DNA from: a virus
Lineage: Duplodnaviria > Heunggongvirae > Uroviricota > Caudoviricetes
DNA: 64,000 nt
Virus record (IMG/VR): IMGVR_UViG_2778261223_000007
Location: 1 to 64,000 of that record
Strand: one strand, 5' to 3'
The position numbers and the translations under genes were made by a program. The notes under the pieces are model-generated. The model worked only from the letters and a program-made list of their open reading frames with translations. It made no database searches and was not told the origin of the DNA. Below are positions 681-56,348 of the stretch, piece by piece (the first letter of the stretch is position 1; every line of letters starts with the position of its first letter).

Positions 681-838
681 AACTCTAATGATTTGTGTTA
701 GAAAACCAAAATTAAATCACATAACAACATGAGTGTTAATAGATTTTATTTTACTAAACCTATTGACTAAATCACAAAGTAGGTATTGTTAGCCCGTCAA
801 AAGAACCTTCACGCCGCGCCCGAATATAGGGCTTAACC

Positions 839-32654: not shown

Positions 32655-32670
32655 TTAAATTTCTAACATA
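32655..32670 (+). promoter_or_regulatory. operator-like motif (C1-type operator candidate)
   Basis: TTAAATTTCTAACATA upstream of the RepL-like gene; one of eight related sites. Confidence 0.45.
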
Positions 32671-32841: not shown

Positions 32842-33804
32842 GTGAGTATTTTAAATTCAGTTTCAGTAACTTTCAACACTTCTGAGTATAAAAACAACAC
32901 TGAATACCACAAAAAAATCAAAGGTCATCAGTTGAGTTTTTTTGCTCGTCATAGCGGTCTTCTTTCCCCTTCACATAGCGCCATTATTGCCGAGTTCGCC
33001 AACCTGGCAGGGTCTACCGATGAATACATGATCCGTCGCTCATATGCTGATATGTCCGAGATTACAGGACGCAGTATTTCTACTGTGCGCCGGGCATTTG
33101 CTGAAGCGACGAAGTGCGGAATGCTTGTTAAGCAACATCAGGTAGCGAATAACAATGCCCAGGTGTGTAACGTATATCGGTTTACGACACAATTTCTCCA
33201 CTTCATTCATGTAGCAATGGAGATAGGGGGTAAGCAGGGCATCAAATTTGCCAACGCCACAAAACTGGTTAAGCAGTTGATTTCAAAGGTTCGTTATTTT
33301 TTTGAAACTGGGAACCCCCTGTTCAAATTGAACAAGTCCCCCCATGTTCAAAATGAACAGCCAATAGAAAATAAGAGTCACTCTATAGCCAAAAGAAGAG
33401 AAAGATCATACGCGGTTCAGCCAAAGGCTTCACCAGCAGATAGTTCTCAAACGGATAACGGTGTACTGGATAAAAAACCAGTAATCAGGGAAGAACATAC
33501 CAACCACTGCCTGGCGGCGGCAAAAGCGAGAGCTGCAAAGCGTCGTTCAGACGAGGGGCACGCAAAACGGCAGGCTCTGTATCGTACCGCTGAAAAGCTG
33601 GCAAAAAAATTTGCATGGATACGTAGTGCCGCTACCGCAGTGAATAAGCCTAAACAATCCAATGCCCTGGATTTCTCAATGGATTATTCTGGCTCCCAGG
33701 GGTGTGCAACCATTGGTGAAGCCTTTGACCTGATGAAACAGCGTGGCTATCGGTCTGAATTTGACCGGGAGGATTGGTCAATCCCTGCGGGATTTAGGGG
33801 ATGA
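32842..33804 (+). CDS. RepL-like lytic replication initiator candidate (or KilA-like)
   Basis: 320 aa with N-terminal HTH (..MSEITGRSISTVRRAFAEATKCGMLV..); operator-like motif upstream, echoing the C1-controlled kilA-repL arrangement of P1. Confidence 0.35.
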   Translation: MSILNSVSVTFNTSEYKNNTEYHKKIKGHQLSFFARHSGLLSPSHSAIIAEFANLAGSTDEYMIRRSYADMSEITGRSISTVRRAFAEATKCGMLVKQHQVANNNAQVCNVYRFTTQFLHFIHVAMEIGGKQGIKFANATKLVKQLISKVRYFFETGNPLFKLNKSPHVQNEQPIENKSHSIAKRRERSYAVQPKASPADSSQTDNGVLDKKPVIREEHTNHCLAAAKARAAKRRSDEGHAKRQALYRTAEKLAKKFAWIRSAATAVNKPKQSNALDFSMDYSGSQGCATIGEAFDLMKQRGYRSEFDREDWSIPAGFRG

Positions 33805-33856
33805 CCTGTGTGTCTACAAAGCATCCCAATGATCGGAAAATGCCCGCTCGATGATT

Positions 33857-33875
33857 TATGTTAGAAAATTAATTT
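33857..33875 (-). promoter_or_regulatory. operator-like motif upstream of the immI-like locus
   Basis: Reverse complement AAATTAATTTTCTAACATA. Confidence 0.45.
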
Positions 33876-34093
33876 GCTGTTTCTAAATCGGAATGTATGA
33901 TCTGCATCATCGACTGAAGTCATCCATTGCTGAAATTTTTAGTTGATCTTCCATGTTTTCAGGCTTATATTCATGCCGTCGTAGCAAATTCTGCGACCAG
34001 GTTTGACAGCCTGAATGTTAGTGCGGACAACCGCAGATTTCCGATATTGCGGTATTTTTGTGTCCGTAAACCGCGTTACGCCCGAATTATGGT

Positions 34094-34168
34094 GGGGCGT
34101 GATGGGGAGGCTTCGGCCTGCTGGTTTCACTAACGCCAGTCTGTCAACCCTGTCACGTCCTGCCACCT
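34094..34168 (+). ncRNA. c4-like antisense regulatory RNA candidate
   Basis: Structured segment with GGTGG...CCACC closing stem; contains CACTAAC (34128-34134) and CTGTCAA (34141-34147), complementary to the repeated GTTAGTG and TTGACAG target elements flanking it; ends are approximate. Confidence 0.45.
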
Positions 34169-34217
34169 GTTTGACAGCGGGTAGCAGGTTGTTAAACCTG
34201 TTAGTGAGGCCGTAACT

Positions 34218-34442
34218 ATGGTTAATGCCAATCCTTGCTCACGTCCAGAATTCATCTGGCGTTTCCACTCCCTGCAAAAACACTGCGATCACTTCGCAAT
34301 TGCCGCAACCGAAAAAGAAGCCCGTTCTCTGATCCCTGATCAGCATGGTGTTCTTACTGGTCGTTTCTCTACTTCCCCACAACCAAACACTAATCCCTGG
34401 TATCGCAATATTACCAATCCCGGCATTGCGGAGGCACACTGA
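34218..34442 (+). CDS. small protein in icd-like position
   Basis: 74-aa ORF whose ribosome-binding region overlaps the downstream target repeat (GTTAGTGAGG..ATG); ATGA-coupled to the antirepressor gene. Confidence 0.35.
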   Translation: MVNANPCSRPEFIWRFHSLQKHCDHFAIAATEKEARSLIPDQHGVLTGRFSTSPQPNTNPWYRNITNPGIAEAH

Positions 34443-35149
34443 TGGATATCTGCATTCTTGAAAAGCCATCAATGACCAGCATTGAGATCGCGGAGCTGGT
34501 GGGAAAACGTCATGACAATGTGAAGCGTACCATTGAAACATTAGCCGAATCCGGCGTTATTGTTCGTCCTCAAATTGAGGATGAACCAAAAATAGATGTA
34601 ATGGGGCGTTCTCGATTAATTCAGGTGTTCCGATTTAGCGACGAGCAAGGCAAACGAGACAGCATCATTGTAGTCGCACAGCTTTGTCCTGAGTTTACTG
34701 CCCGGCTGGTGGACCGCTGGCGCGAACTGGAAGAACAAGTACGCCAGCCGTTGACCGAAATAGAGATGATCGCCGCAATGGCTGCAAATGCAGTTCAGCA
34801 GCAAAAGCGGCTTCATGCTGTTGAGTCAAAGGTTAGCCAGGTCGCTGAAACCGTCGAGCAAATCAAGAAGGGCAATATGCCAGATGGCTACATTGGCTAC
34901 CGCCAGCTGGCGGCGAAATGTGGCCTGACCGAAGCCAAATGCCGTAACCTGGTTAACGCTTACCGGATTCCCACCGATACACATGAGTTTTTAACTCCAG
35001 AGGGGGTATTGTCGCGTCGTTCCATCGTGGCCTTATCTCCCTTCATGAATGCTTTTAACCGGATGATGTCGGAGGCTGAACACCGAGGAAAACGCTGGTA
35101 TCACCCCAAAATGGGGCAATTCCAGGTGATCGGTTGGGGAGGTGAGTGA
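34442..35149 (+). CDS. antirepressor-like protein (Rha/ORF6N-type N-terminal domain)
   Basis: N-terminal ..MTSIEIAELVGKRHDNVKRTIETLAESGVI.. typical of phage Rha/antirepressor N-domains; downstream of the c4/icd-like elements. Confidence 0.5.
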   Translation: MDICILEKPSMTSIEIAELVGKRHDNVKRTIETLAESGVIVRPQIEDEPKIDVMGRSRLIQVFRFSDEQGKRDSIIVVAQLCPEFTARLVDRWRELEEQVRQPLTEIEMIAAMAANAVQQQKRLHAVESKVSQVAETVEQIKKGNMPDGYIGYRQLAAKCGLTEAKCRNLVNAYRIPTDTHEFLTPEGVLSRRSIVALSPFMNAFNRMMSEAEHRGKRWYHPKMGQFQVIGWGGE

Positions 35150-35354: not shown

Positions 35355-35380
35355 GCCCCGGCCTGGCCGGGGCTTTTTTC
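35355..35380. terminator. bidirectional intrinsic terminator
   Basis: GCCCCGGCCTGGCCGGGGC hairpin followed by TTTTTTC; between convergent genes. Confidence 0.6.
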
Positions 35381-35864
35381 ATGCCTCATTAGTTGAGGTT
35401 GCTGCGTCTCCGACTGGTAACAGAGCGGTATTGCGTGGTTCGCCAGCAGGCCAGCGATAGCCAGACACTCTTGATGTTGGGAATGCGCGAATATTAACCG
35501 CATCCCCCTGGTTCCCACCCAGGACAAGCAGATCGCCATTGGCGCGGCGTCCGACAACGAAGCCTACGTGCCCACCGCCTACACGGGTAAATACAACGAT
35601 ACATCCGTATGCCGGTGTATCTAATTTCTCGCCCCAATCCAGATAGGATTTTGCCGACTCAAATCTTGTTGAGCGGATGCCTACACGTTCCAGCATTGCA
35701 CCGACAAATGCTGCGCACCACGGCGTTTCATCGTCTTTAATTCCGCCGCGCTTGATGTCGCGCCAGAACTGAACGATTTCAGGGTTGTGTTTAGCGCCTT
35801 TTATTTCAGTCAGGCCAATGTGCTTACGGGCTTCAATTAGCCAGCGAGGTTCAATGTTTGCCAT
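35379..35864 (-). CDS. putative cysteine-peptidase-type cell-wall hydrolase (CHAP/NlpC-P60-like)
   Basis: 161 aa; ..DETPWCAAFVGAML.. (Cys) and ..GGGHVGFVVG.. (His) arranged as in CHAP/NlpC-P60 folds; motif-level inference only. Confidence 0.4.
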   Translation of the reverse strand: MANIEPRWLIEARKHIGLTEIKGAKHNPEIVQFWRDIKRGGIKDDETPWCAAFVGAMLERVGIRSTRFESAKSYLDWGEKLDTPAYGCIVVFTRVGGGHVGFVVGRRANGDLLVLGGNQGDAVNIRAFPTSRVSGYRWPAGEPRNTALLPVGDAATSTNEA

Positions 35865-36015: not shown

Positions 36016-39000
36016 TTGGACAAACTACTTCATTCAATCAGTGAAGCCTCCAGCTTAGGCGAACTGATTGAAATTGTTAGTCGGTTGCATAAATTACGTG
36101 CTGTTGCGACCTTTGGCGTCAGGAAAGCCGATGGCGTCAGTATTCAGAAAACACGCCGGGCAGCAAATAATGCCGCAGTAAATCTTCTTAATTCCCTTCC
36201 GCCCGGCTTCGATGGGGCGAAATTAACTGACGAACAACGTCAGATTCTTGCCGGGTATACCGGTGAAGGCGGCCTGACAGATGGTGAGGGCAGCCAATAC
36301 GAATACTACACGCCACAGTTTATGGCTGAAGGTATATGGGATCTGTTTGCTGACTACGGTATTGATGGCGGGCACGTACTGGAACCATCAGCGGGCACAG
36401 GTATTTTCCAGGAGACAAAACGGCAGGGCATGATAATGACCAGCGCGGAACTGTCTCCGATTTCTGGTCGAATAAACCAGCTTTTGCACCCGGAAGACGA
36501 TGTGAATATCGGGGCGTTTGAGGCGCTGGCGGCGAAAGATGCAATGTATGACCACGCTGTTGGTAACGTACCGTTTGGTGAAGGGCGTTCCGGCGTTGCC
36601 GGGCTTGATCCGGCATATGCAAACGAGAAGAACGTTGGCAATTACTTTGTGCTGCGCACGATCGACAAGGTTAAGCCTGGTGGGCTTATCGTATTGGTGG
36701 TGCCAAATGGCATGACCGATGGTACGAAATATAAAAAATTGCGCGATAAAGTCAGCCGTAAAGCGGAATTTTTGGGCGCACATCGTATGCCTTCCGGTAC
36801 GTTCAGCGAATCCGGTACAGATACCGTGGTGGACGTATGGGTATTGCGTAAACACCCGGAAACCTTCCTGGAGATGATCCCCGACACGGATGATTCAACA
36901 CTCAAATCGGCAAACGTCCTTTGGGATACCTTCCTCAAAGGAAAATGGTTTACAACCGAAGGGAAGCGATTTGTTTACGGCGACATGGAACGTGCCAGCT
37001 TCCGCAATACCCTGGTGGTGAAAAAAGACGGTCGTGTATCCAATGAGTCGATGAAAACCGCGCTATCTCGTCGCTTTGATAGTCGCATCAATTGGGATTT
37101 GCTCGGCGTAACTACTCAGGCATGGCAGGGCGCGAAAGTGGGCGATAAACGCCTTGTAGGCGGTATCTGGCATGAGTTTGATGGTCTGAAATGGGTTAAG
37201 GACACGACAACCAAATCCTCCGCGCTTGATGTAAGTCGATATGGTGTTTCGACGTTTGGCGATCTGCAGATCGCGTTCCAGTCAACAAACGGGATTCTGG
37301 CTTTGTCATGGGACCAGATATCGGCGATCGCGTCCGACTATCCATCGGTTGTCAGTGATGAAGTGGCAGCAATGATTCGCTTTGCTGGCAAGCAGCGAGA
37401 AAAAGATAGAGAGCGCGTTATGCGCGGTGCGCTGATAGGGCAGTTGATCAACAAGGCACTTGATTTGCGTAACCTGGGGGTGAACGTTGATGACAAACTG
37501 GCAGATGCATCCCGCCTGGCGGCAGCAGAAGTTGCGAAGTATGGACCACCACACGCCATTAAGCTGAATGGGCTTGCTGAAGCTGGCGCTAAAAACTGGA
37601 TGACGTTCACTGGCAATGTGAAACAGGATGGTTCCACTTCTGACCTTCTGGCAGGGCGACTTGATGTAACGGATGGTGCTGCCGGTATTGACTTTACACG
37701 TCCTGAACAAGTGATAGCACATCTTTTCAGTGATGTAGCCCTTAATCCTATAACGCTGGGAGACTTTCGTGAGGCGTTTGCTGGTGAACTGCCAGAGGAC
37801 GACGACGCGGCCCTTGAATACCTGGCGAAATTTGATGATATCGCTATTGATGGGTATGGCTGTCTGCTGCCGATGGACCGCGCCACCAGCGGCGATGTTG
37901 CAACCAAAACAGCACTGCTGGTGGGCTGGCGTGATGCGTCAACAGGTGAGCAGAAAGCGAACTTTGAGCGTCAGTTGGCGAAAATCGAAGAGAAACGCAT
38001 TTTCACGCCACTAAATAAAGTCACCGTTAATCTGAATGCCCGCTGGCTGGATCGCCGCTTGATAAAAGAGTTCTTGGCAGAGCAGGGCTATGACGAGTTT
38101 AAGTACACTGAACCTGATCTGAAGGTCGTCGATGGCATTCTGGTATCTCCGGACGATTACGAAGGTAAGGACGGGGTATTTACCGGCTATCAGCTACGAA
38201 CCGTAAACGGCAAAAACGGGAATGAGTTCAAGAAGGCCAACAATAAAGACGGCTTCCTGAACCAGTTAGAAAACTACCTGAACGGTGTTAAACCGCGTGG
38301 GCAGAACGCTAACGAGTACCTGGATAAAATTGCTCAACTGGAAGTTAGCTTTAACGACTGGTTACGCACCCACCCGCAGGCGGATCAGATAGCCCGTGAC
38401 TATAACGACGCATTCAATGGTTTCATTCCGTTCACACATTCTGACGCACCGCTTGGCCTGGAAGGGATTAGTGGAAAGCGCATTCCTCTGACTTATCAGA
38501 ATGAAGAAGTTCGGCGCTTGTCAGAAGATGGGCGTGGCATCATGGGATTTGGTACCGGGCTGGGTAAAACCACGACCGCGCTTGCGCTTGAGGCGTATAA
38601 CTTCGAAACAGGTCGCACTAAACGCACGTGTATTGTTGTTCCGAAGGCGGTTTATCAGAACTGGTATCACGAGGCACAGAGTTTCTACAGTGCTGATGCC
38701 TTCGCCAATATGATGTTTATCGGTTTGGATGAAGTTCGTGATGACAGCGGAAATATTCTGACCGCGCCGGTGCTTGATGAAAATGGCGAACCACGCCTCG
38801 ACAGTAACGGGCAGCCTCTTACCAGAAATGTTGTGAAAGAGTCCTCCAGCGCCGTTATCGTTCAGCGTATGAACATGATCCCGTCGTCAAATTGGCGAAC
38901 GGTCATCATGACAAAAGAACAATTCGCGTCTATCCCGCTACGAGAAAAAACCATCGAGGAGAACTCACAGCAAGCTGTCTTTAATGCTGTGGAAATGGGG

Positions 39001-42000
39001 CGTCTTGACCTGGCGTCCGGTAAACACCGTGATGCGCAGAAGAAGAACAAGATTAAGGATCAGGCCGCGAATACCGGTACAACGAAGAAGCAAAATATCC
39101 CGTACTTTGAGGATATGAACTTCGATAGCGTGATTGCCGACGAGGGGCATAACTACCGCAACTCCTTTAATGCCGGGCGTGAAGCGGGACAACTGGCATA
39201 TTTGCCTAACCCGGCAGTATCCAAGATGGCCCGCGACATGGCTGTAAAAGCTGCGTACATGATGAAACGCAACAACGGGCGTGGTGTAGTCATGCTGACG
39301 GCAACACCGCTGGTGAACAGTCCGATTGATGCCTTCAACATGCTGTCTACTGTCATTCCGCAGGAAGAGTGGATGCGTATGGGCATCATTACGCCTGATG
39401 ATTTCGTTCGTGTGTTTGGCAAAACAGCCACAGTTCAGGTCCAGAAAATTTCCGGGGAAGTGGAAGAGAAGCAGGGGCTGGTGGGCTTCCAGAACCTTGA
39501 CGGCCTGCGTGGTATTTTCCATCGTTGGGCCACTCTGAAGACTGCTGCAGATGTCGGAGCGACGGTTAAAATTCCCGACATCATCGAGAACACCTTGCAG
39601 ATCCCGATGACAGGGGAGCAGGAGACTGCTTATGAAGAGCTTCGTAAGCGTGCTCAGGAGTTAAGTCGCAATGATGAGCTGACAGTCGATGAAAACGGGC
39701 ATATCACTAACGACAAACCGGATGATTTCATCTTCTCCATCATCCGTGACATGGATAAGGTTGCTATAGACCCGGATCTGTATGCCAGTGCGATTACATT
39801 CCAGTTCCCCGTTGAGCTTGCAGACCAGGTAAAAGCTATTGCTGATGCCTTGCCAAAAGTAGCTGGCGGTAAAGTGGCAGATGATGTTGATGAGGCCGAG
39901 GAAGACGGCGCTGGCGGGCTGGTCAGTACGCGTACCAGCAAGGTAGTGAAGACCGCTTTTAGTGAACATCCGACGCATGTTGAAATACGTGCCAGCATTG
40001 AACTGGAAGCTGAAATACTGAAGGCCATTGCGGCTGCCGGCATTGATATGCAGCAGGTATCGCACCCCATCCCGCCGAAGTATGCCGCGCTGATCGAAAA
40101 TCTTCGTGAAGGTCTGAAGAACGGTAAGCAGATCGTCTTTATTGATGAAAAAGCCCAGCACCAGAAGCTGCGCCGTATTATCGCCAGTGCACTGCAAATG
40201 CCGGAGCAGGAGATTGGCATTATCAATGCGACGACAGTTAGCCAGGCTGGTGGCATCAAACTGAAGAAGGTGAATAAGCCGACCGAACCTACTCCAAACA
40301 AAAACGGTGAATACAAAGAAGGGGCATGGGAAACCTACTACAGCAAACTTGCCCAATATGAGGATTATCTCTCCGCTAAAAATGATGCTGGCCTTGAGGG
40401 CATGGAAGGTATTGCCGCCGACTATAACGAAGGTCGCACGCGCATCATAATCTGTAACAAGAAGGCTGAAGTAGGTATTAACCTGCACATCGGGACAACC
40501 GATATCCACCACCTGACACTACCCTGGACACCAGCCAGTATCGACCAACGAAATGGGCGCGGTGCGCGCGTAGGTTCACCGCAAGAAAAGGTCAATGTTC
40601 ACTACTATTGTGGCAAAGGCACATTCGATGACTTCCGTCTGGATACGCTTAAACGTAAGAAAGACTGGATCAAGATGGTGATGACCTCCGACATGTCAGA
40701 GATCGCCAATGGTGATGCGGATGATGCTGATGAACGCGCCATTATGCTGGCGGCAAACCCGGAAGAACGCCGCGCAATCATGGCTCGCCAGGCGCAAGAG
40801 CGTGAAGAACGTCTGAAACTGAAAGCACAGCGCGAGGCCAACAATGCTCTCGATATCTACCTGAAAGCGGCAAACGCCGCCGGAAAAGATATCGGCATGA
40901 TGGAGACAGAACTGAAAAGCGCGATGGAACAGATAGAGTATTACCAGCGAAATCTTGACGACCTGATAAAAGCGGGTACGAACAGGAATGGGCAAAAATA
41001 CGCGCTTGAGCAGTTGAGTAGCTACAGAAAACGTGCGCGGGTGCTGCGGTTTGCGATCACCAGGGCAAAAGACGCGGATACCATAATGAAACGCTCTCGT
41101 GGTGATGTGGAGCGCGCTATTAAGTCTGGTGTGCTGGATATCAGTATCGATGTTATTCAGAACCCACAGGAATATATGCGCACTGACAAGAATATCCTGT
41201 TGCATAAAGGTAGTTATTACCGTGCAGTCATTGATGATCGCGAAACAACAGCGATTGTCCGGGTGGAAAAAATTGACGGTGAAAAAGCACAATACCTCTG
41301 CCGTATCGCCTGGCTGGATAGAGCAAGTCGTTACGCTCGAGCACCGGGGTCAATCGTTACATTGCCGTTTGACTCTGTGATTGAAGCGGTAACTTTTGAA
41401 GAGGGGGTAGCTGAATCGCGCGCAACGGCTGCGCGAGGTGTTCAGTGCCACCAGCTATCAACAATACTTACTCGCGATCAGTTCTATGATGCTATTCGCA
41501 ATGGGGTAATGAATGTTATTGCTGGTAAACCTGGTAATGCATGGGGCGGTGGGTCAGCTATTAAATACTGGGCATATCGCACAGATGATGGTCAGATCGC
41601 GCTGTCATCGGCCTATGATGGCGTGATAGGCCAAAAAATCGGGCGAGCATCGGATATAGCACCTGAGCGATGGATATATCCTGATGGCAACGACGAGGCG
41701 CTGAAGCGTGAAGTGGCAAAAATACAAGCCAGTGATAACCCGCTGAATATCGTGGACGGCGAGGGATTCCTCCAGGCATTGTATGGGTATGATTACATCC
41801 AGGGAATGCAGGCATGGGGCGCACAGGCAACGATGGATGATGTTGCCCAGGAGTTCGAAAACTGGATGGCTGGGCGTGGTCTGTCAGGTCGTTCGCTTAA
41901 TAAAGTCACTTCTGAAGATATTCTTAGCTTGTTCCGCAAACCGTCCGGAGAAGGTCTGGAATCATTCTGGAGGACCGTGCTGGCATACCGTTTATTCCAG

Positions 42001-42852
42001 GGCAGGATGAAAGCCTTTAGCAATATCGATGATATTGAACGGATGTTTAATCAGGTCAAGATCGCGAAAATTAAGGCGAAGATCGAAAAAACACGTTCTG
42101 CGCTGGTGGCCTGGCGCGATGCATTGTTTGAGCAATATAAATCACTCAGTGATGCAGATGGATGGGCGGCATTGGAACAGCTGGCGAATAATGGGGTAGA
42201 TGGAGCGAAACTCGCCATTGTTCAGGCTGATAACCCCCTGGAATCACCGGCAGCACAGTGGATTAAGGTGGGGGCTGTCATCAATGCATTTGATGAAAAA
42301 CACATTAGTAAGGACGATTTTGCTGATGCTGTTTCTGTTAATCGCCTGGTAGAAATGGCTACCCGCCGCGCCCGTGAGTTGAAAGACGGCGACTATGTGA
42401 ATGAGTTGCCGGATACGCTCAAATCGGCAACGTGGCAGGACTATGTATCGCTGAAAAACGGCGGGGCCACTGAATCAGAGATCGCGGAAAGGCTTGAGCA
42501 GGCTGAAAGCAAAAGAGAAGAGCAGGCGGCAGTGGCTGAAGCCAGAGCTGATGAAGCGGCGAATGATGACTATATCATTGTGGTTAATGATAAGCCGATT
42601 CGCGCTAAGGCGCGTGTTCGCGGGCGCTGGTGGAGCGTCAGCGAGGACGTTGGCGCGGTTTATCTCATTGCCGACCAACCAGGTTCCTCGACAATACGGA
42701 ACGCCAAAGACGCGATTAAGAAGATTGGCGGGCGTTTCTGGAATTTTGAAGCAAACCCGGTTGCTGATGTGAACTTTGACCGTCCTGCATGGATGGTATC
42801 TACGCGTTACTCGGTAGATGAACTGCGTAAAATAATCGCCGATGCGGCCTAA
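36016..42852 (+). CDS. darB: DarB-like antirestriction protein: N6-adenine methyltransferase domain fused to SF2 helicase domain
   Basis: 2278 aa; SAM-binding LEPSAGTGIF and NVPF (motif IV-like) near the N-terminus; helicase Walker A GFGTGLGKTTTALAL and DEGH box VIADEGHNY; size and architecture match P1 DarB as recalled. Confidence 0.75.
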   Translation: MDKLLHSISEASSLGELIEIVSRLHKLRAVATFGVRKADGVSIQKTRRAANNAAVNLLNSLPPGFDGAKLTDEQRQILAGYTGEGGLTDGEGSQYEYYTPQFMAEGIWDLFADYGIDGGHVLEPSAGTGIFQETKRQGMIMTSAELSPISGRINQLLHPEDDVNIGAFEALAAKDAMYDHAVGNVPFGEGRSGVAGLDPAYANEKNVGNYFVLRTIDKVKPGGLIVLVVPNGMTDGTKYKKLRDKVSRKAEFLGAHRMPSGTFSESGTDTVVDVWVLRKHPETFLEMIPDTDDSTLKSANVLWDTFLKGKWFTTEGKRFVYGDMERASFRNTLVVKKDGRVSNESMKTALSRRFDSRINWDLLGVTTQAWQGAKVGDKRLVGGIWHEFDGLKWVKDTTTKSSALDVSRYGVSTFGDLQIAFQSTNGILALSWDQISAIASDYPSVVSDEVAAMIRFAGKQREKDRERVMRGALIGQLINKALDLRNLGVNVDDKLADASRLAAAEVAKYGPPHAIKLNGLAEAGAKNWMTFTGNVKQDGSTSDLLAGRLDVTDGAAGIDFTRPEQVIAHLFSDVALNPITLGDFREAFAGELPEDDDAALEYLAKFDDIAIDGYGCLLPMDRATSGDVATKTALLVGWRDASTGEQKANFERQLAKIEEKRIFTPLNKVTVNLNARWLDRRLIKEFLAEQGYDEFKYTEPDLKVVDGILVSPDDYEGKDGVFTGYQLRTVNGKNGNEFKKANNKDGFLNQLENYLNGVKPRGQNANEYLDKIAQLEVSFNDWLRTHPQADQIARDYNDAFNGFIPFTHSDAPLGLEGISGKRIPLTYQNEEVRRLSEDGRGIMGFGTGLGKTTTALALEAYNFETGRTKRTCIVVPKAVYQNWYHEAQSFYSADAFANMMFIGLDEVRDDSGNILTAPVLDENGEPRLDSNGQPLTRNVVKESSSAVIVQRMNMIPSSNWRTVIMTKEQFASIPLREKTIEENSQQAVFNAVEMGRLDLASGKHRDAQKKNKIKDQAANTGTTKKQNIPYFEDMNFDSVIADEGHNYRNSFNAGREAGQLAYLPNPAVSKMARDMAVKAAYMMKRNNGRGVVMLTATPLVNSPIDAFNMLSTVIPQEEWMRMGIITPDDFVRVFGKTATVQVQKISGEVEEKQGLVGFQNLDGLRGIFHRWATLKTAADVGATVKIPDIIENTLQIPMTGEQETAYEELRKRAQELSRNDELTVDENGHITNDKPDDFIFSIIRDMDKVAIDPDLYASAITFQFPVELADQVKAIADALPKVAGGKVADDVDEAEEDGAGGLVSTRTSKVVKTAFSEHPTHVEIRASIELEAEILKAIAAAGIDMQQVSHPIPPKYAALIENLREGLKNGKQIVFIDEKAQHQKLRRIIASALQMPEQEIGIINATTVSQAGGIKLKKVNKPTEPTPNKNGEYKEGAWETYYSKLAQYEDYLSAKNDAGLEGMEGIAADYNEGRTRIIICNKKAEVGINLHIGTTDIHHLTLPWTPASIDQRNGRGARVGSPQEKVNVHYYCGKGTFDDFRLDTLKRKKDWIKMVMTSDMSEIANGDADDADERAIMLAANPEERRAIMARQAQEREERLKLKAQREANNALDIYLKAANAAGKDIGMMETELKSAMEQIEYYQRNLDDLIKAGTNRNGQKYALEQLSSYRKRARVLRFAITRAKDADTIMKRSRGDVERAIKSGVLDISIDVIQNPQEYMRTDKNILLHKGSYYRAVIDDRETTAIVRVEKIDGEKAQYLCRIAWLDRASRYARAPGSIVTLPFDSVIEAVTFEEGVAESRATAARGVQCHQLSTILTRDQFYDAIRNGVMNVIAGKPGNAWGGGSAIKYWAYRTDDGQIALSSAYDGVIGQKIGRASDIAPERWIYPDGNDEALKREVAKIQASDNPLNIVDGEGFLQALYGYDYIQGMQAWGAQATMDDVAQEFENWMAGRGLSGRSLNKVTSEDILSLFRKPSGEGLESFWRTVLAYRLFQGRMKAFSNIDDIERMFNQVKIAKIKAKIEKTRSALVAWRDALFEQYKSLSDADGWAALEQLANNGVDGAKLAIVQADNPLESPAAQWIKVGAVINAFDEKHISKDDFADAVSVNRLVEMATRRARELKDGDYVNELPDTLKSATWQDYVSLKNGGATESEIAERLEQAESKREEQAAVAEARADEAANDDYIIVVNDKPIRAKARVRGRWWSVSEDVGAVYLIADQPGSSTIRNAKDAIKKIGGRFWNFEANPVADVNFDRPAWMVSTRYSVDELRKIIADAA

Positions 42853-44801: not shown

Positions 44802-44822
44802 TATGTTAGAAAACTAATTTAA
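44802..44822 (-). promoter_or_regulatory. operator-like motif
   Basis: Reverse complement TTAAATTAGTTTTCTAACATA immediately upstream of the 44842 gene. Confidence 0.45.
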
Positions 44823-46050: not shown

Positions 46051-46068
46051 TGTGTTAGAAATCTAAAA
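46050..46068 (-). promoter_or_regulatory. operator-like motif
   Basis: Reverse complement TTTTAGATTTCTAACACAT overlapping the stop codon of the upstream gene. Confidence 0.4.
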
Positions 46069-47284: not shown

Positions 47285-47360
47285 GATGGTGTAGCTCAGC
47301 GGTTAGAGCGGTTGACTGTTAATCAACGGGTCGATGGTTCAAATCCATCCACCATCGCCA
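47285..47360 (+). tRNA. tRNA-Asn (anticodon GTT)
   Basis: Cloverleaf read by hand: acceptor GATGGTG/CACCATC, D-stem GCTC/GAGC, anticodon loop CTGTTAA, T-loop TTCAAAT, discriminator G + CCA encoded. Confidence 0.85.
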
Positions 47361-47362
47361 AT

Positions 47363-47438
47363 GCCGGTTTAGCTCAGTTGGTAGAGCGCCTGCCTTGTAA
47401 GCAGGATGTCAGCGGTTCGAGTCCGTTAATCGGCACCA
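47363..47438 (+). tRNA. tRNA-Thr (anticodon TGT)
   Basis: Acceptor GCCGGTT, D-arm GCTCAGTTGGTAGAGC, anticodon loop CTTGTAA, T-loop TTCGAGT, CCA encoded; close to E. coli tRNA-Thr as recalled. Confidence 0.85.
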
Positions 47439-48975: not shown

Positions 48976-49051
48976 GGCCCCTTAGCTCAGTGGTTAGAGC
49001 TGGCGACTCATAATCGCACGGTCACCGGTTCAAGTCCGGTAGGGGCCACCA
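48976..49051 (+). tRNA. tRNA-Ile2 (anticodon CAT, ileX-like)
   Basis: GGCCCCTTAGCTCAGTGGTTAGAGC...CTCATAA...GGTTCAAGTCC...AGGGGCCACCA; near-identical in outline to E. coli ileX as recalled; CAT anticodon could also read Met. Confidence 0.8.
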
Positions 49052-50473: not shown

Positions 50474-50491
50474 TATTAGATATTTGGTATT

Positions 50492-50506
50492 AATTTTCTA
50501 ATACAA
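50492..50506 (+). promoter_or_regulatory. operator-like motif (variant)
   Basis: TTAATTTTCTAATACA upstream of the gene preceding pacA. Confidence 0.35.
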
Positions 50507-54922: not shown

Positions 54923-54937
54923 TTAGTTTTCTAACAT
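54923..54937 (+). promoter_or_regulatory. operator-like motif
   Basis: TTTAGTTTTCTAACATA in the promoter region of the minus-strand gene starting at 54908. Confidence 0.45.
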
Positions 54938-55117
54938 AAAATTACTATGACAAATTTATGTCGAATAACAGAGTGAGTAAAGGATCGAACTGTGATTTTT
55001 TGTCATCAATTTTAGAAAACCAACCGTAGAAACCACACTTCGCTAATTAAAGACCATGAAGGCAACGTGTTACTGGTCATCATCAATCTATGATGGATTA
55101 AAAAAAATCGGCATTTT

Positions 55118-56332: not shown

Positions 56333-56348
56333 TTAAATTTCTAACACA
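56333..56348 (+). promoter_or_regulatory. operator-like motif
   Basis: TTAAATTTCTAACACA two bp after the recombinase stop codon. Confidence 0.45.

Follow-up and report, generated by a model that had tools for sequence, protein, structure and literature searches.

The segment between positions 33857 and 34442 of the stretch of 64,000 nucleotides analysed here, which is referred to in the following as the window, raises the question of what kind of immunity circuit it encodes and whether the specificity of that circuit is a new one. From its letters, an earlier note had read the segment as an immI-like antisense circuit which reproduces the architecture of the P1/P7 immunity I region but has different seed sequences, and had suggested a distinct immunity specificity on these grounds. 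As to its kind, the feature is already known, as it is the textbook c4 antisense-RNA switch of P1 and ordinary for these phage-plasmids. Both c4 and c4-a1b1 have curated families in Rfam, which trace back to Weinberg et al. 2010 (PMC2864571), a summary of how c4 works in P1 is given in PMC8198154 with reference to Citron & Schuster 1990 and Riedel et al. 1993, and for the D6-like prophage pYU39_89 an ImmI-related region with homologues of c4, icd and the antirepressor is described together with a second c4/icd region (PMC6799933).

With respect to the origin of the window, its genes follow the order found in Escherichia phage D6, i.e., portal, pro-like gene, repL, immI, CHAP-domain hydrolase and darB-like gene. 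An 801-bp query comprising the immI module and its flanks is 96.3% identical to D6 (NC_050154 / MF356679), which is also the closest whole-genome relative of the window among the deposited phage records searched, and over 1.5 kb the module and its flanks are 99.2% identical to pE2863-2, an E. coli plasmid of 92.9 kb. It is this gene order together with the identity to D6 and pE2863-2 that places the window, on sequence grounds, within a D6-like plasmid prophage of E. coli of about 92 kb.

As for the neighbouring genes, a gene for a CHAP-domain protein of 161 aa (35379-35864, minus strand; Pfam PF05257, E 2.7e-7; TIGR02594 family in RefSeq) follows directly after the immI operon, on the opposite strand, and the CHAP-domain neighbour of ImmI is referred to as a putative peptidoglycan hydrolase in the corresponding part of PMC6799933. 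An open reading frame of 2278 aa (36016-42852, plus strand) is described in the D6 annotation as similar to darB of P1 (DEAD/DEAH helicase / SNF2-related), and three tRNA genes (47285-47357, 47363-47435 and 48976-49048, plus strand; Rfam RF00005, 66-75 bits) are present as well. Outside the window, a glutamine--tRNA ligase gene (glnS), an unusual cargo for a phage-plasmid, is annotated on pE2863-2 (L005 23566-25227).

The antisense part of the locus consists of the following elements:

33965-34017, plus strand: c4-a1b1 leader element (Rfam RF03163, 54.4 bits against a gathering score of 46.7, E 2e-12)
34003-34009, plus strand: a1 target TTGACAG, exact complement of a', aligning to the annotated a1 of P1
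34017-34023, plus strand: b1 target GTTAGTG, exact complement of b', aligning to the annotated b1 of P1
34091-34167, plus strand: c4 antisense RNA of 77 nt, identical at 77/77 positions to the annotated c4 misc_RNA of P1
34128-34134, plus strand: b' seed CACTAAC in the loop of the second hairpin, unpaired in the MFE and centroid structures
34141-34147, plus strand: a' seed CTGTCAA in the single-stranded joint from hairpin 2 to the closing stem, unpaired in the MFE and centroid structures
34171-34177, plus strand: a2 target TTGACAG, exact complement of a' (7/7), aligning to the annotated a2 of P1
34200-34209, plus strand: b2 target GTTAGTG(A), complement of b' at 7/7 positions (8/8 with the next base), overlapping the icd Shine-Dalgarno sequence

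The pair of targets that had been noticed is indeed present twice, as TTTGACAGC-CTGAAT-GTTAGTG at 34002-34023 and as TTTGACAGC-N21-GTTAGTG at 34170-34206, the start of the second copy having been set to 34169 in the earlier note and being offset by 1 nt. These are the only two matches to TTTGACAGC-N-GTTAGTG in the 64 kb of the window, and 100 dinucleotide-preserving shuffles yielded 0 matches. The exactly complementary arrangement CACTAAC-N6-CTGTCAA, said to lie between the targets, was recovered as CACTAAC-GCCAGT-CTGTCAA, which occurs once in the window, at 34128-34147 between both target copies. Folding, which had been proposed as a check, bears out that the segment between the target copies is structured: its predicted energy is -42.5 kcal/mol (z = -4.66), with 0 of 200 shuffles being as stable, and the c4 fold, a long closing stem around two hairpins for which the MFE and centroid structures are identical, leaves the two seeds as the only unpaired stretches within it. 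The Rfam model C4 (RF01695) is matched over its full length (1-87) at 34085-34170 with 68.8 bits as compared to a gathering score of 45, and the matches to RF03163 and RF01695 were both recovered in an Rfam scan of the whole window. The Rfam matches to rnk_pseudo (27.8 bits) and 5.8S rRNA (15.7 bits) fall well short of threshold and were taken to be due to chance. No second c4/icd module came up within the window, either in blastn and tblastn searches with the module or in the full Rfam scan. The predicted duplexes of the seeds with their own targets amount to -9.2 kcal/mol for a'/a2 and -11.8 kcal/mol for b'/b2. In view of the identity to P1 c4, it is likely that RNase P sets free a stable 77-nt RNA from the transcript of the operon and that this RNA acts in trans.

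Downstream of these elements lie two protein-coding genes:

34218-34442, plus strand: icd-like gene, 74 aa (NCBIfam NF033153 'host cell division inhibitor Icd-like', E 2.3e-10; PHROG 1426)
34442-35149, plus strand: antirepressor gene of the Rha family, 235 aa (PHROG 63 'anti-repressor Ant', E 6e-47; Pfam Phage_pRha, E 4.5e-9)

The claim that the downstream GTTAGTG is situated at the ribosome-binding site of the icd-like gene was found to be correct, as the Shine-Dalgarno sequence GAGG (34206-34209) overlaps b2 (GTTAGTG, 34200-34206) and stands 8 nt before the icd ATG at 34218. The Icd-like protein is 61% identical to Icd of P1. The icd-like gene is followed, again as had been stated, by an antirepressor gene, whose start overlaps the icd stop (TGATG, 34440-34444), and this overlap points to a translational coupling of the antirepressor to icd. 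Homologues of P1 Ant1 (tblastn) and of Coi were not found within the window.

The region as a whole is 90% identical to the annotated immI region of P1, and the stretch from 34002 to 34238, which spans a1, b1, c4, a2, b2 and the first icd codons, is 100% identical to it. While the immI-like reading therefore stands as far as the P1/P7 architecture is concerned, being upheld by RF01695, RF03163 and the alignment to P1, the part of it that invoked different seeds, and with them a specificity of its own, is refuted by the alignment: each of the six elements (a1, b1, b', a', a2 and b2) is identical to its counterpart in P1, and so is every one of the 77 positions of c4. Since this stretch including all six seed and target elements is the same as in P1, the specificity of the c4 of the window is, to judge from its sequence, P1's own, set in a D6 backbone, and it is unlike that of P7 and D6. 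P7 is the classical heteroimmune partner of P1; it has the same c4 scaffold and architecture as the window, but both of its seeds differ (a' CTGCTAA, b' CACAATC), with a1/a2 and b1/b2 changed to match. D6, in turn, shares with the window repL, the promoter region, the 3' part of icd, the Rha-type ant and the neighbouring genes, but has CGTAAGT as b' and ACTTACG as b1/b2 where the window has CACTAAC and GTTAGTG, and shows four isolated differences within 34017-34205, at each of which the window agrees with P1. In predicted duplexes, the seeds of the window reach -9.2 kcal/mol with a2 of D6, which is identical, and -0.9 kcal/mol with b2 of D6; with the P7 targets the values are -4.1 kcal/mol for a2 and -4.9 kcal/mol for b2.

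That new specificities do arise in this family can be seen from D6, the closest phage relative, which has a b seed of its own with matching b1 and b2, and from the at least seven b-types among the relatives listed (see below). However, a circuit with seeds unlike those of P1 and P7, and thus a new immunity specificity, is extremely unlikely for the window itself, given that its six elements and the whole of 34002-34238 are identical to P1 and that the same type recurs in 16 of the 120 loci listed.

Outside this stretch the relationships are reversed. The identity to D6 amounts to 100% upstream of 33999, where that to P1 is roughly 45-80%, and to 96-100% downstream of 34244, where that to P1 drops to about 40-70%. 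The mosaic junctions fall into 33999-34017 and 34205-34244, with 100% identity to P1 between them and D6-type sequence on either side, a pattern suggesting that P1-like and D6-like phage-plasmids have exchanged sequence by recombination or gene conversion. In its organisation the locus accordingly combines likenesses to P1 immI with differences from it. The order a1-b1-c4-a2-b2-icd-ant, all members of which are annotated in the P1 record, is shared, and so are the hexamers of the P51b-type promoter, the position of b2 over the icd ribosome-binding site and the overlap of icd stop and ant start. Unlike P1, the window lacks the P1 C1 operator, its control region, as far as 33998, does not resemble that of P1, and its antirepressor is the 235-aa protein of the Rha family instead of Ant1/Ant2, which are two in-frame products in P1. 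Furthermore, the operon comes after repL, whereas in P1 it comes after the sim genes, and it comes before the CHAP-domain hydrolase and the darB-like gene instead of before kilA-repL.

The control region and its candidate regulator comprise the following features:

33857-33872, plus strand: operator-like 16-mer TATGTTAGAAAATTAA, a copy of the repeated TRTGTTAGAAAWYTAA, upstream of the immI promoter
33943-33971, plus strand: sigma-70 promoter (TTGATC, 17 nt spacer, TATATT), the sole promoter-like site in 33750-34300
694-709 (plus), 32655-32670 (minus), 33857-33872 (plus), 44802-44817 (plus), 46051-46066 (plus), 50490-50505 (minus), 54923-54938 (minus) and 56333-56348 (minus strand): copies of TRTGTTAGAAAWYTAA
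53871-54908, minus strand: distant homologue of the C1 repressor, 345 aa (tblastn with P1 C1: 20% identity over 242 aa, E 1e-5)

The promoter aligns with the annotated P1 promoter P1c4 (P51b; -35 TTGACC, -10 TATAGT) and is its positional equivalent. The P1-type C1 operator consensus ATTGCTCTAATAAATTT has no match anywhere in the window with up to 3 mismatches. The asymmetric 16-mer TRTGTTAGAAAWYTAA, with at most 1 mismatch, is present in 8 copies in the window versus 0.02 expected. One of these copies (33857-33872), which coincides with the start of the interval singled out in the earlier note, is located 70 nt upstream of the -35 hexamer, another (54923-54938, minus strand) sits directly upstream of the C1-like gene, and a third (32655-32670, minus strand) lies between the pro-like gene and repL. 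The 345-aa C1-like reading frame belongs to PHROG 1678 (function unknown). The 16-mer TRTGTTAGAAAWYTAA is probably the operator of a D6-type C1 repressor, in place of Oc4/Op51 of P1, and the C1-like protein is presumed to be both its partner and the target of the antirepressor. If TRTGTTAGAAAWYTAA is such an operator, the operon would be repressor-controlled as in P1, but by another repressor-operator pair.

Between b1 and c4 lies one further feature:

34030-34061, plus strand: terminator-like hairpin with UAUUUUUG in the predicted fold, forming the 3' end of the a1b1 unit; IsrK-like, with a putative role

The a1b1 leader together with this hairpin and its U-run (33978-34059, plus strand) resembles IsrK, an Hfq-binding sRNA of Salmonella, although with 43.5 bits the window stays below the gathering score of 50 of the Rfam family isrK (RF01394). 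By its position, the hairpin could limit transcription read-through into c4. One might therefore ask whether the c4 cassette has been recombined in and is by now an inactive remnant, unexpressed or unneeded, for instance if transcription came to a stop at 34030-34061 and only a short IsrK-like a1b1 RNA were made. Besides the hairpin with UAUUUUUG and the sub-threshold isrK match, it would speak for such a remnant that neither the promoter-proximal flank nor the antirepressor is of the P1 type. P1, however, has the identical hairpin and yet makes c4. The hexamers of the promoter are conserved, and although the seeds have diversified, 119 of the 120 loci listed show a perfect match between them and their targets. 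Moreover, the chimera has been conserved, as 47 plasmid records share its 401-bp core (33900-34300) with an identity of 99% or more. Loss of function is thus very unlikely. Of 5426 complete E. coli genomes, 536 contain a match to the 601-bp module (33850-34450), nearly always on a plasmid, and the D6-like element carrying the P1 c4 cassette is a common phage-plasmid of E. coli and Salmonella.

A further alternative would replace the RNA by a small repressor protein, encoded either by 34015-34215 (66 aa) or by 33927-34133 (68 aa). Both of these reading frames exist, and c4 is still entered as a CDS in X15639, an old record of P1. Yet RNA pairing, and not a reading frame, accounts for the match to a covariance model, for the stability of the fold and for the way in which the nucleotides of seeds and targets co-vary at three sites, and according to PMC8198154, where it is cited, Citron & Schuster 1990 was the point after which the hypothesis of a c4 protein was dropped; a protein repressor is hardly conceivable here.

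With high confidence, the region can be considered as the immI (secondary immunity) operon of a D6-like plasmid prophage which is equipped with a P1-type c4 cassette. Transcription would start from the sigma-70 promoter at 33943-33971, probably under the control of the D6-type C1 operator at 33857-33872, and would give rise to one transcript comprising a1/b1, c4, a2/b2, icd and ant, from which the 77-nt c4 (34091-34167) would be excised. In P1, c4 is reportedly processed by RNase P, and untranslated icd is said to lead to premature transcription termination. The excised RNA would display its two 7-nt seeds, b' in the hairpin loop and a' in the single-stranded joint, for pairing in trans with b2 and a2, and because b2 overlaps the icd Shine-Dalgarno sequence the translation of icd would be blocked. 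Translation of ant would drop with that of icd, because ant starts on the icd stop (TGATG). In the lysogen, the antirepressor would consequently stay silent, and the silencing would extend to an incoming phage that shares its c4 type. Expression, processing, translational repression, polarity on ant and operator control are all extrapolated here from the genetics of P1. An inactivation of C1 by Ant in the D6-type element may be assumed by analogy only, because the antirepressor family differs from Ant1/2 and the C1 homologue is just 20% identical.

The element of which the window is part appears to carry this type of switch twice. In pE2863-2, a second complete C4 module is found outside the window at L005 9196-9470 (C4 77.1 bits, isrK 62.7 bits); it precedes a second icd-like gene and has unrelated seeds, its targets being TTGGAAC and GTCAAAGG, the latter of which overlaps the Shine-Dalgarno sequence. 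By way of pE2863-2, the second c4/icd region mentioned in PMC6799933 can thus be placed in the approximately 29 kb of the plasmid that lie outside the window. About 500 bp upstream of the second module there is a third, weak C4-like match (L005 8781-8860) which at 40.2 bits is below threshold. The RefSeq annotation of pE2863-2 includes icd and the gene of the Rha family, whereas c4 is missing from it; on such plasmids, c4 RNA is under-annotated.

As to the range of specificities in the family, IMG/VR was scanned with the conserved scaffold of c4, the seeds being left free, which yielded at least 119 stretches, and 120 loci with enough flank, made up of the matches listed from IMG/VR plus the window, P1, P7, D6 and pE2863-2, were aligned. 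Among the loci listed there are at least two a-types (CTGTCAA, CTGCTAA), at least seven b-types (CACTAAC, CACAATC, CGTAAGT, CATTCGT, CATGTAC, CACAAGT, CTTGAAC) and at least 12 combinations of the two. In 119 of the 120 loci among the matches listed, a1 and a2 are identical to each other and to the reverse complement of a', and the same holds for b1, b2 and b'; the sole mismatch among the loci listed is found in L046, where b' CATTCGT is accompanied by b2 GTTAGTG. Among these loci the seeds differ at up to most of their 7 positions while the scaffold is near-constant: at the 180 non-seed positions, all but one of the 120 loci listed are 0-11 nt away from the window, the exception being 48 nt away. 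As the seeds diversify and nevertheless match in 119 of the 120 loci listed, selection must be acting on the pairing, and the co-variation at three sites provides strong support for the model of seed-target pairing. The seed type of the window accounts for 16 of the 120 loci listed, 10 of which are on D6-type and 5 on P1-type backbones. Contigs with two modules (e.g., L017/L079 and L058/L066) carry differing specificities.

Given the interleaved order a1-b1-b'-a'-a2-b2, the swap of a single seed would need several exchange tracts or independent compensatory mutations. It is about an even call whether the P1-identical tract of 237 bp represents a recently exchanged specificity cassette, such that P1-like and D6-like elements share a combinatorial repertoire (at least two by at least seven types) in which the seeds diversify under selection while the sites stay matched, and such that the window would cross-react with P1 at immI despite its other repressor and operators. 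In the literature searched, nothing relevant was found on an earlier description of multiple c4 specificities. The family offers a clean natural example of an RNA-RNA specificity evolving via coordinated changes at three sites, and from the seed types it can be predicted which P1-like and D6-like plasmids, when resident in the same cell, should mutually silence their antirepressors.
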